This document shows, in pieces, positions 8,291 through 34,028 of a stretch of DNA of 64,000 bases. The notes below the pieces were generated by a model. That model had not been told where the DNA came from, made no database searches, and worked only from the letters and a program-made list of their open reading frames with translations. Made by a program: the position numbers and the translations under genes. Source of the DNA: an uncultured Chloroflexia bacterium. GTDB lineage: Bacteria > Chloroflexota > Limnocylindria > Limnocylindrales > CSP1-4. The DNA lies in contig CAVQJC010000004.1 in assembly GCA_963712745.1 (NCBI GenBank), positions 192,001-256,000 of the forward strand, read 5' to 3'. Every line of letters starts with the position of its first letter. Positions within the stretch are counted from its first letter, which is position 1.

Positions 8291-8624
8291 GTGCTCTCTC
8301 CGGTAAGGGTGGCTGGGCCGCCAATCGTAGTCGCCCGGCCGGTGGCGCGCTCGAAGGCATCGCCCGTGCGCTCCTTGCCGCCGAGTGCCGCGACTTCCCC
8401 ATCGATGGACTCGAAGGGGCCACCGGATACCCTCGAGCTGTTGATGGCGAGATCGACAGCGGAGGATGGCCCATGGCCCCGGTGGACAGTCTGGCACGCC
8501 TGCGCAAGGCACTCATCGACCCAGCCGAGCGGGGTGAGGCACCCGTGACCCAGGCCACGGCCGGTCGAGCAGAGCGGGGCCTCCGTCTGCTCCCGACTGG
8601 CTAGATACCCCAGGCCCGTAGCTG

Positions 8625-9840
8625 TCAAGCAGCAAGCTGCTCGAGGGGTCGACCCCAGGCCGTCTCCTCGTCGTAGCGGGTCCGATGCGTGAGGCAGCCG
8701 TGGAGGATGCCCACGAGCCTGTTGGCGAGCTTGCGACGGGCGGTCCTGGACGTGTGTGGTCCCGGGTCGTGGGCGTCGTAGTAGGCGCGGGCACCGGGTG
8801 ACGCGCTCAGGGCACAGAGGGCCCACTGGTACGTGGCATCGGCGAGCCGGCGGTTGCGCACGAGACGAGCCACGACGACGTGGCTCGTGCCCGATGCCCG
8901 CGTGATCGGGCTGGTGCCCGCGTAGTTGCGCCGGGCCCTAGCATCGGCATAGCGGTCGGGGGCATCCCCGAACTCCGCGAGCACCCGGGCGCCGAGGACA
9001 GCACCGAGTCCAGGCAGACTTCGCAGGATCTCGGCGTCCGGGTGACGATCGAAGGCATCGACGAGCTCGGCCTCGAGCCGGGCGATCTGCTCGCTCAAGG
9101 TCCTGATGACCGCCACGAGCGCGGTGGTGTTCGCCGCCTGGGCCTCGGCCACGAGCGCTGGAGCCGCCAGTTGTGGCGCCCGCAGGGCCGAGCGGATCTC
9201 GCTCGCCCGCTGCTCGAGGTTCCGCTGTCGGCCGCCCTTGCGCAGGAGCGAGACGGTCTTCGCCTGGCTGAGCTTGCGTCCGCGCACAGGATCGGGTGCC
9301 GCCATGAGCACCGCGGTCGCATCGGGGTGCGCGAGGTCCTCGAAGGCGACCATGGCCCCCGGGTAGTACTCGCGCAGGGCGCTGCGCAGCGCGTTGGTCT
9401 GGCGCCCCCGCGTCCAGATGAGGTTCTGGTGGGCCCGGGCGAGGACCTTGATGGCTGCCTGGAGCTCGCTGTCGGGGGCCACCCGACGATGATGCTGGCG
9501 GTCGGTGCGGACGAGATCGGCGAGGACCCGTGCGTCGCCCCGGTCGGACTTGGCCCGGCTCGTCGTATGGCGCTCGCGATATCTCGAGGCCGCGAGCGGG
9601 TTGACCGCATACACCCCGTACCCCGCCGCAAGCAGGGCGGTCACGAGCAGGCCCCGGTCGGTCTCGATGCCGACGATCACATCGGCCGGCTCGTCGGCAT
9701 GCTCACCGAGCAGCGCGTGCAGGCGGGCCACGCCCTCGAGGCCCTCGGGGATGCGCCTGGTCGCGAGCACCTCCCCCTCGCTGTCGAGCACGCAGACGTC
9801 GTGGTGCGTCTCGGCCCAGTCGATGCCGATGAAGATCGAT
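8625..9840 (-). CDS. IS110 DEDD transposase (bridge recombinase); start codon appears as ATCG (extra C)
   Basis: IFIGIDWAETHHDVC, IETDRG, KSDRGDA, LPGLG, TRASG catalytic Ser; frame open to 9836, GGAGGGAG RBS precedes ATCG at 9840. Confidence 0.92.
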
Positions 9841-9874
9841 CGCTCCCTCCATCTCCGCTTCGGAGCCGCAGGAG

Positions 9875-10050
9875 GCGGTCATGGCGCCCTAATGGACCAG
9901 TGCTCATCGGCACGTCACCCCAGCAGCCATCTCGACCGTCCTCGCCGACCGCCGGGGGCACGATCTAGCCGTGGGACTCAGACGTCCTGACTCGGCCAGT
10001 GCTCACCCGGTGGTCCGGCTCGGCGACCAGTCTGAACCCTCAGTCCGGTC
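9875..10050 (-). ncRNA. IS110 bridge RNA (5' stem-loop, target-binding loop, donor-binding loop)
   Basis: Two internal loops closed by stems, with guide segments matching the insertion target (GGCCGAGTC / GGCTAGA) and the donor junction (CTGGGGTGAC / TGGTCCATTAG); ends approximate. Confidence 0.8.
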
Positions 10051-10058
10051 TGGCCCAT

Positions 10059-10064
10059 TAGACT
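10059..10064 (+). promoter_or_regulatory. -10 box TAGACT of leaderless HAD gene, spanning the IS junction
   Basis: TAGACT 7 nt before GTG 10072; first T supplied by IS end. Confidence 0.6.
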
Positions 10065-10071
10065 CAGGCGT

Positions 10072-10830
10072 GTGAACCTCGCGACCGACCCTTCCGTCAT
10101 CCTGCTCGACGTGGGCGACACGATGGCCAAGGCCTATCCCTCCTGGCGGGACGTGTATGCCACCGTCTTCGCGCCCCACGGCATCCAGGCCGACGGAGAC
10201 GACTTCGAGGCCGCCTTCCGCGAAGCCTGGGCCGAGTGGGCACACGAAGGGCCCTTCGAGGCCACCGAGGAAGCCTCCTTCCAGCGGCTCATGGAGCTCG
10301 ACCAGCTGGTCTTCGACCGGCTCGGCTATCCGGATCTGCCGGAGTCGTTCTTCCGCGATGTCGACGCCGCGTTCCGGCAACGCTCCGCGTTCTATGTCTT
10401 CCCCGACGTCATCCCCGCGCTCGACGTGATGCAGGCAGCAGGCCTTCGTCTCGCCGTCGTCAGCAACTGGGGCTGGGCCGCCCCGGAGCTGCTGCAGACG
10501 CTGGAGCTGGCCCGCCACTTCGAGGTCATGAGCATCAGCGCTCGCGTGGGCTACCAGAAGCCGCACCCAGCGATCTTCGAGCACGCGCTCCACCTGCTGG
10601 GCGTGGGACCGGATGAGGCCATCCACATCGGGGACGATCCCCAGGCCGATGTCGTCGGCGCACGCCGAGTCGGCATCGAACCGGTGCTCATCGACCGCCG
10701 CGGCCGCATCGACACGCCCATCGGGGCCGGGTCTGGGACCGGTCAAGTGGCCCTCGTCCGCGACTTCTGGCAGTTGCTGGATCTGCTCGGGCTGGAGCGG
10801 CCGGCATCGATCGACGGGGATCAGGCCTGA
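10072..10830 (+). CDS. HAD-IA family hydrolase
   Basis: LLDVGDT motif I, VVSNW, KPHPAIF, HIGDD..ADVVGA. Confidence 0.92.
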   Translation: MNLATDPSVILLDVGDTMAKAYPSWRDVYATVFAPHGIQADGDDFEAAFREAWAEWAHEGPFEATEEASFQRLMELDQLVFDRLGYPDLPESFFRDVDAAFRQRSAFYVFPDVIPALDVMQAAGLRLAVVSNWGWAAPELLQTLELARHFEVMSISARVGYQKPHPAIFEHALHLLGVGPDEAIHIGDDPQADVVGARRVGIEPVLIDRRGRIDTPIGAGSGTGQVALVRDFWQLLDLLGLERPASIDGDQA

Positions 10831-33956: not shown

Positions 33957-34014
33957 CAGCGGGACCACTCCGGGCAGCGCGGGCCGGTCCCCTCCGAGCG
34001 TCCGCCGACGCCGC

Positions 34015-34020
34015 TAGACT
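34015..34020 (+). promoter_or_regulatory. -10 box TAGACT of leaderless hisS
   Basis: TAGACT 8 nt upstream of ATG 34029, no SD. Confidence 0.6.
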
Positions 34021-34028
34021 CGCAGGCG

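Follow-up and report, generated by a model that had tools for sequence, protein, structure and literature searches.

The window considered here is a 64,000-nt stretch of DNA (G000:C4:192001-256000) from the assembly of an uncultured Chloroflexia bacterium (G000; 4.22 Mb, 68.5% GC, 20 contigs), and it harbours, directly before a gene for a HAD-family hydrolase, an insertion sequence (IS) of the IS110 family. This element is probably, with a likelihood that we put at about 0.8, guided by a bridge RNA that is programmed to the hexamer TAGACT, landing before genes that lack a Shine-Dalgarno (SD) sequence and rebuilding the hexamer upon insertion. Four insertions were counted for its lineage, which is characterized by a GAGTC guide: copies A (in the window) and B of G000, a decayed copy (L028) in the sister species G005, and L002, an 83% relative that is also located in G005. 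All four lie within CTAGACT(C/T), with TAGACT positioned 6-10 nt before a start codon; the insertion point at each is a TANNNT hexamer, and no SD-like run is found between the junction and the start at any of the four sites. An earlier note on this DNA, made from the letters of the window, had proposed that the element uses such hexamers as a recurring intergenic landing pad whilst sparing the open reading frame (ORF), and had suggested mapping its copies; mapping in the genome and its relatives upholds the proposal, as all four insertions of the lineage are at TAGACT before starts. The coordinates of the features and the insertion sites are collected in Table 1.

The target of the element is read from the guides of its bridge RNA, according to the rules of Durrant et al. 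2024 (PMC11208160), in which the left target guide (LTG) corresponds to the top-strand left target, the right target guide (RTG) is the antisense of the right target, and the core dinucleotide is contained in both. The LTG, GGCCGAGTC, and the RTG, GGCTAG, together give GGCT-AG-ACTCGGCC as the programmed target on the + strand, the central eight letters of which, on the gene strand, are CTAGACTC, that is, TAGACT with a single additional letter at either end. The earlier note had joined the guides to the same target, containing TAGACT, and these letters held. Among relatives, the RTG co-varies with the right flank, the two matching at 7/8 letters in L002, at 8/8 in L027 and at 7/8 in each of L003 and L005, the last two after a 1-nt offset was corrected by eye. 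In three copies of the element, the LTG matches the flank at 7, 7 and 8 of 9 letters and the RTG window does so at 6, 6 and 5 of 8; some relatives have weaker LTG matches (3-5 of 9), giving an overall range of 3-8 of 9. The genome contains no perfect copy of the programmed 14-mer, 24 sites with two mismatches and 258 with three, and the sites actually used have two and three. The unoccupied look-alike that had been placed before hisS is likewise where it was said to be; it belongs to a set of 32 CTAGACTC sites, and the 433-amino-acid ORF behind it is identified as hisS by TIGR00442 (E=3.9e-128, with the profile aligning from residue 5).

The region of approximately 200 nt that would encode the bridge RNA, between the left end (LE) of the element and the transposase gene, is highly conserved among 14 relatives, two short arms excepted. 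A consensus fold of these relatives (RNAalifold) contains 61 pairs, arranged as a 5' hairpin and two modules that each consist of a stem, an internal loop and a hairpin, and nearly all of the variable letters are located in the two sides of the first module's internal loop. The right donor guide is kept across the clade as CCATTAG or CCATCAG. Compensatory changes were found at just two pairs, so support for the structure comes from conservation and from its likeness to the published architecture rather than from covariation. Folding of the single sequence was rejected in favour of the alignment fold, as it did no better than shuffled sequences (z=-1.67) and paired the two guides together. A scan of 8400-10300 against Rfam (E<=1) returned no bridge-RNA family, the matches being a chance snoRNA and Ms_AS-4, an Actinobacteria small RNA; the Ms_AS-4 match (8937-9018, + strand, 71 bits against a gathering score of 50) is antisense to the transposase and is probably conserved IS110 coding sequence rather than a separate RNA gene.

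Both ends of the element are defined by their junctions, which on the + strand read ...GACTGGCT-AG-ATACC... at the right end (RE; 8595-8609) and ...GGCCCATT-AG-ACTCAGGCGTGTG... at the left end (10052-10074). The element body occupies 8605-10059 on the minus strand and measures 1455 bp, or 1457 bp with one copy of the core. A CT core is common to both ends in 8/8 of the complete or near-complete copies compared, and the junctions of these eight copies display neither terminal inverted repeats nor any duplication longer than the 2-nt core. At empty orthologous sites the core is present once. In G022, the homologue of the left flank of copy A runs directly into CTAGACT upstream of the HAD gene, and the orthologous left flank of copy B likewise continues straight into the hexamer. 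The empty counterparts of the other two sites are found in G000 itself, as CTAGACT-6 nt-ATG before rarA (C4:143005) and CTAGACT-10 nt-ATG before ileS (C10:158425). The empty site that had been reconstructed from the window is therefore borne out by orthologues. A 185-nt contig from DNA run X1 adds weak, letter-exact support, as it consists of 8437-8605 followed by 16 letters identical to 10063-10078, the arrangement of an empty HAD allele, with an overhang that is shorter than the 31-letter bridging rule; a second X1 contig (10036-10273) carries the filled junction.

These junctions suggest how the hexamer could be both the target and the product of insertion. Recombination would occur at the AG (CT) core, which constitutes positions 2-3 of the hexamer, and because the core lies inside the hexamer, a single orientation of insertion is expected, in which the left end is placed against the gene. 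The ORF would be left intact, whilst the DNA upstream of the hexamer would be exchanged for IS DNA. Since the left end and the target both carry an A after the core, the gene-side junction reads T-AG-ACT again, its T being supplied by the element. The gene-side junction is ...CCATT-AG-ACT in 4/4 insertions, and in the window its letters agree with the claims of the earlier note that TAGACT is regenerated at 10059-10064 and lies 7 nt before the GTG (10072) of an SD-less HAD gene.

The significance of TAGACT in this genome was assessed from the start contexts of 4041 long ORFs with a GC content at third codon positions (GC3) of at least 0.82. TANNNT words are several-fold enriched with their first base 12-15 nt before candidate starts, equivalent to a 6-9 nt spacer, and this holds in out-of-frame registers too. 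TAGACT is the commonest TANNNT word in this position, where 44 of its 128 genomic copies are found (two being IS junctions), and it shares the position with other TANNNT words, among them TAGGCT, TACCAT, TAGCAT and TATGCT. A long high-GC3 ORF starts within the next 6-10 nt at 27/61 CTAGACT sites and at 19/41 CTAGACT(C/T) sites in the 4.2-Mb genome, compared with 422/9556 (4.4%) for 60 shuffled 7-mers used as a control. The hexamer is also retained before orthologous genes. Amongst 19 orthologues of the HAD gene, 18 have TAGACT (17 with a preceding C) and one has TAGAAT, 5-9 nt before the start and with varying spacer letters, whilst the 19 orthologues of the gene behind copy B comprise 14 with TAGACT, three with TACACT, one with TAAAAT and one locus that was not assessable. 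The native TAGACT sites of the genome lack a visible -35 consensus on their upstream side. At the HAD orthologue loci L134-L150, from many sister species, the end of the upstream gene is often separated from CTAGACT by no more than approximately 25-45 nt. A -35 region, if there were one, would then extend into coding sequence, as is consistent with a promoter dependent on the -10 box alone. TAGACT is most simply read as the -10 box of leaderless genes, and (C)TAGACT followed 6-10 nt on by a start codon would strongly predict the starts of leaderless genes in the genus.

The guide itself provides a further line of evidence. When the guides of L001 and L002, which are 83% related, are compared, 0/9 of the positions that spell CTAGACTC differ, whereas 6/7 of the distal positions do (Fisher p=0.0009). 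The LTG letters adjacent to the core show free variation in other lineages and are, accordingly, not mechanically fixed. In addition, unrelated lineages in other taxa exhibit the same layout, with TAGGTT-7 nt-ATG in L060 and TAGGGT-6 nt-ATG in L099. We infer that the guide is held on TAGACT by selection, the motif offering many conserved intergenic sites. A more ambitious version proposes that selection has kept this lineage on an RNA-polymerase hexamer that serves as a genus-wide, conserved, multi-copy safe harbour, with insertions made near-neutral by the donated T and with ileS and other essential genes still firing; this version is tentative, and we would sooner bet against it than for it. 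Bolder still is the extension that promoter melting from the core A helps the bridge RNA to pair with both DNA strands, which would make the promoter a mechanistically favoured point of entry besides a safe one.

A number of observations weigh against programming for promoters. The sample is restricted to four insertions from two related lineages in one genus, G000 has two copies against 41 candidate sites, and the best genomic match to the programmed target (one mismatch, C2:90205, promoter-type) is unoccupied. As 46% (19/41) of the motif sites are promoter-type anyway, the 4/4 result has a p value of about 0.05. The 43 distinct left junctions of the wider clade, which is defined by CT-AATGGG, include 10 TANNNT hexamers, a number near chance, and six with a start behind; other lineages of the clade aim elsewhere. 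Throughout the clade, every LE starts CT-AATGGG and nearly all RTGs end in TAG, so that the restored T follows a clade-wide rule of donor and target and may be a by-product. The letter before the native hexamer is C in 24 cases and G in 11, with T in 3/44, two of these being IS junctions, and the rebuilt box is therefore atypical at this position. Finally, the transposase is frameshifted in both G000 copies, possibly through assembly errors. Many of these points are what would be expected if the guide fits CTAGACTC merely by descent and the restored T is accidental, with no selection for promoter targeting or for repair. An AT-containing word that bears CTAG would, on this account, survive almost only at promoters in a genome of such high GC content, and promoter-type insertions would be incidental. 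What this account does not anticipate is that diverged lineages kept all nine CTAGACTC positions whilst changing six of seven distal ones, that the core-adjacent LTG positions are free to vary elsewhere, or that TAGNNT, a spacer of 6-7 nt and ATG recur in the unrelated L060 and L099. It is consequently a possible but not a favoured explanation.

Another reading is that insertion simply destroys the native promoter, leaving the genes silent or read from or through the element, with the TAGACT at the junction irrelevant. Everything upstream of the hexamer is indeed replaced, and native sites seldom have a T in front of TAGACT. Both IS junctions are crossed by contigs of X14, an RNA library from an estuary (8470-8620 and 9983-10156; depth 2.5-2.7), and the contig that spans the IS/HAD junction is not expected from a purely leaderless transcript; these contigs show neither strand nor transcript ends and may represent read-through transcription or DNA carry-over, and they were used neither for nor against expression. 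Set against loss of the promoter is the insertion before ileS: the decayed copy L028 precedes the single ileS match in G005, an assembly that is 80% complete, indicating that an insertion before a normally essential gene has persisted and that expression must survive somehow. A source of transcription within the element is not apparent either, as a consensus scan of both strands of 8400-10300 returned 0 sigma-70-type promoter-like sites. Furthermore, native TAGACT sites are without a -35 consensus, and the replacement of upstream DNA need not, therefore, kill the promoter. Destruction of the promoter thus appears rather improbable; in the favoured reading, the rebuilt box would still drive the downstream gene. 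Less probable again is that TAGACT is some other pre-start signal, for instance one bound by a regulator or one that acts in translation, rather than a -10 box. The evidence for transcription is indirect, and the C that is enriched before the hexamer (61/128 genomic copies) is not a classical feature of -10 elements. Nevertheless, TAGACT conforms to TANNNT, other TANNNT words share its position 6-9 nt before starts, orthologues substitute TAGAAT, TACACT or TAAAAT for it, and it precedes unrelated housekeeping genes.

Table 1. Features of the IS110-family element, its insertion sites and neighbouring genes (window positions unless another contig is named).
Feature	Position	Strand	Remarks
Core dinucleotide, RE junction	8603..8604	AG on + / CT on transposase strand	End comparison
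TTGACA in RE	8623..8628	minus	cTTGAC kept in all relatives
Transposase gene	8625..9853	minus	ATG 9853-9851 out of frame; listed ORF from GTG 9791
Bridge RNA region, between LE and transposase	9860..10059	minus	Predicted from consensus fold of 14 relatives
Right donor guide CCATTAG	9889..9895	minus	Reverse complement of core CT + LE AATGG, exact
Left donor guide GGGGTGAC	9914..9921	minus	Second internal loop; 6/8 against RE end GGGGTAT-C
RTG GGCTAG	9970-9965	minus	Reverse complement of CT-AGCC; exact at HAD site
LTG GGCCGAGTC	9997-9989	minus	Matches left flank + core C
Rebuilt TAGACT	10059..10064	+	T from IS end, AG core, ACT host; same in copy B, L028 and L002
Core dinucleotide, LE junction	10060..10061	AG on + / CT on transposase strand	End comparison
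HAD-family hydrolase gene	10072..10830	+	GTG start, 7 nt after hexamer, no SD
Unoccupied look-alike site GCTAGACTCG	34013..34022	+	TAGACT 8 nt before hisS ATG (34029)
Insertion A: GGCT-AG-ACTCAGGCGT GTG	window	gene strand	7 nt after TAGACT; HAD hydrolase, 252 aa
Insertion B: GCCT-AG-ACTCGGTGAC ATG	C20	gene strand	7 nt after TAGACT; 246-aa membrane protein, N-terminal hydrophobic stretch
Insertion L028: GACT-AG-ACTTGGCCGACCG ATG	G005:C2	gene strand	10 nt after TAGACT; ileS, TIGR00392 from residue 10
Insertion L002: CTCT-AG-ACTCAGCGG ATG	G005:C4	gene strand	6 nt after TAGACT; RarA-type AAA ATPase

The assignment of the element to the bridge RNA-guided IS110 group of the IS110 family follows from its transposase as predicted from the DNA. 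A read-through translation contains an N-terminal DEDD RuvC-like domain (PF01548 DEDD_Tnp_IS110, E=2.1e-39, residues 8-164) and a C-terminal domain of the IS116/IS110/IS902 type (PF02371 Transposase_20, E=1.1e-14, residues 273-358). The ATG of copy A is out of frame owing to one extra base near 9838, which is absent from copy B and from one contig of run X2, and this 1-nt frame problem leaves the first D (GIDW) upstream of the listed GTG start. The transposase of copy B has an extra T in the middle of the gene. As ileS of G000 (C10:157547-158408) is also split over two frames, indel errors in the assembly are likely. If the ends were joined in a circle (8603-8605 with 10057-10059), TTGACA would come to lie 17 nt before TCTAAT, which gives a predicted junction promoter of the layout known for the family; no RE-to-LE circle joint was found among the run contigs compared with the window, although contigs drop rare forms and the parts of the window that they do not cover are uninformative.

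Copy B (G000 C20:26140-27595) is 99.9% identical to copy A, and the similarity ends exactly at the called IS ends. L028 is a copy of 98-100% identity with two internal deletions and a mutated RTG, and five full relatives with 81-83% identity and shared ends are present in the sister genomes of the genus (one each in G005, G031 and G022, and two in G029). An LE search of 49 genus and 401 class genomes recovered no further full copies of the GAGTC-guide lineage, and the exact loop pattern of this guide gave 0 matches in genome contigs and 0 in metagenome contigs, in scans that also missed G005, which carries the pattern. A looser pattern for the clade matched 18 stretches of metagenome contigs, none of which has the GAGTC guide, whilst a protein-based search of genome contigs returned 71 loci, the close ones being only the sister-genome copies already known. 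Four short LE fragments (L042, L008, L037 and L036) were considered as insertions of the lineage and left uncounted, as they belong to other or truncated lineages and their flanks are not TAGACT.

Relatives with other guides add further observations on this clade. A 3'-truncated relative of 83% identity in G000 (C20:141093-142224) and the metagenome loci L115, L116, L119 and L122 form a sister lineage with the LTG GAGTACAGC; its sites are several and differ from each other, sharing little beyond CAG before the core, and left-guide matching in this lineage seems much looser than right-guide matching. In L050, L051 and L083 (Actinomycetes metagenome-assembled genome), the host flank after the core begins with GAG, giving an SD-like AGGAG junction that in L050 is located 6 nt before an ATG, and this lineage may target ribosome-binding sites in a comparable manner. 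A solitary right-end fragment in G000 (C1:178635-178866, 78% identity) is followed by CT and ten letters identical to the DNA at or just after the RTG in the bridge RNA genes of relatives; an element seems to have recombined into the DNA that encodes the guides of a different copy, where the CTAG mimics the target. In L114, around positions 80-140, just ten letters separate a right end (...GGGGTAT-CT) from the left end that follows it (CT-AATGGG), the two elements being nearly back to back.

In the portions of the literature available, the known natural targets of elements guided by bridge or seek RNAs include repetitive extragenic palindromic (REP) elements, the attC sites of integrons and a conserved segment of IS3-family transposase genes. 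Transposon ends are a further target of such elements. If the proposal is correct, the core of a promoter would be an additional class, in which a 14-nt RNA guide is tuned to a short word that many unrelated genes must keep. What is new is the natural target class; the kind of element, a bridge-RNA IS, is known. The earlier note was aware of no description of this targeting strategy, and its view stands to the extent that the literature searches turned up no account of an IS110 element that targets -10 boxes or the promoters of leaderless genes, although the supplementary target-motif tables of Durrant 2024 may hold cases. Should the rebuilt box work, the element would exemplify a natural scar-neutral insertion directly upstream of genes, with a bearing on how ISs persist in compact genomes and on how bridge recombinases might be employed to insert cargo before genes without silencing them.

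The closest parallel in terms of position is IS900 of Mycobacterium avium subsp. paratuberculosis, which reportedly targets translation initiation signals (Doran et al. 1997, listed in PMC2942039). It is said to insert between the ribosome-binding site and the start codon. This IS110-family element likewise reportedly inserts in one orientation at an expression signal directly before a host ORF, which remains intact. The sites differ, however, in that the element described here recognizes a hexamer 6-10 nt before the start, a putative transcription signal, in the absence of an SD sequence, and none of the four insertions lies between a ribosome-binding site and a start codon. In Pseudomonas putida, ISPpu9 and ISPpu10 also employ a conserved, multi-copy intergenic word as a landing pad, according to two reports (PMC12288879; bioRxiv 10.64898/2026.03.19.712850). 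The second of these describes a junction promoter, P_junc, formed from an RE -35 and an LE -10, as is predicted here; the pad of these elements is a REP stem-loop that plays no part as a promoter, and regeneration of a host signal is not described in the portion available. The system with which most features are shared is that of IS621 and the IS110 group, as presented by Durrant et al. 2024 (PMC11208160). Common to both are a recombinase with DEDD and Transposase_20 domains, a bridge RNA upstream of its gene with a target loop (LTG/RTG) and a donor loop (left and right donor guides, LDG/RDG), a CT core within the guides, and an RE -35 that would meet a -10 across the circle junction, the last being predicted here from the letters. 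The RTG of IS621 comprises four bases, whereas here it is longer, with up to 8 letters matching in relatives, and LTG matching (3-8 of 9) is looser than that of IS621. The natural target of IS621 is a REP element, in contrast to the hexamer before leaderless-type genes, a putative promoter, to which the present element appears to be directed.

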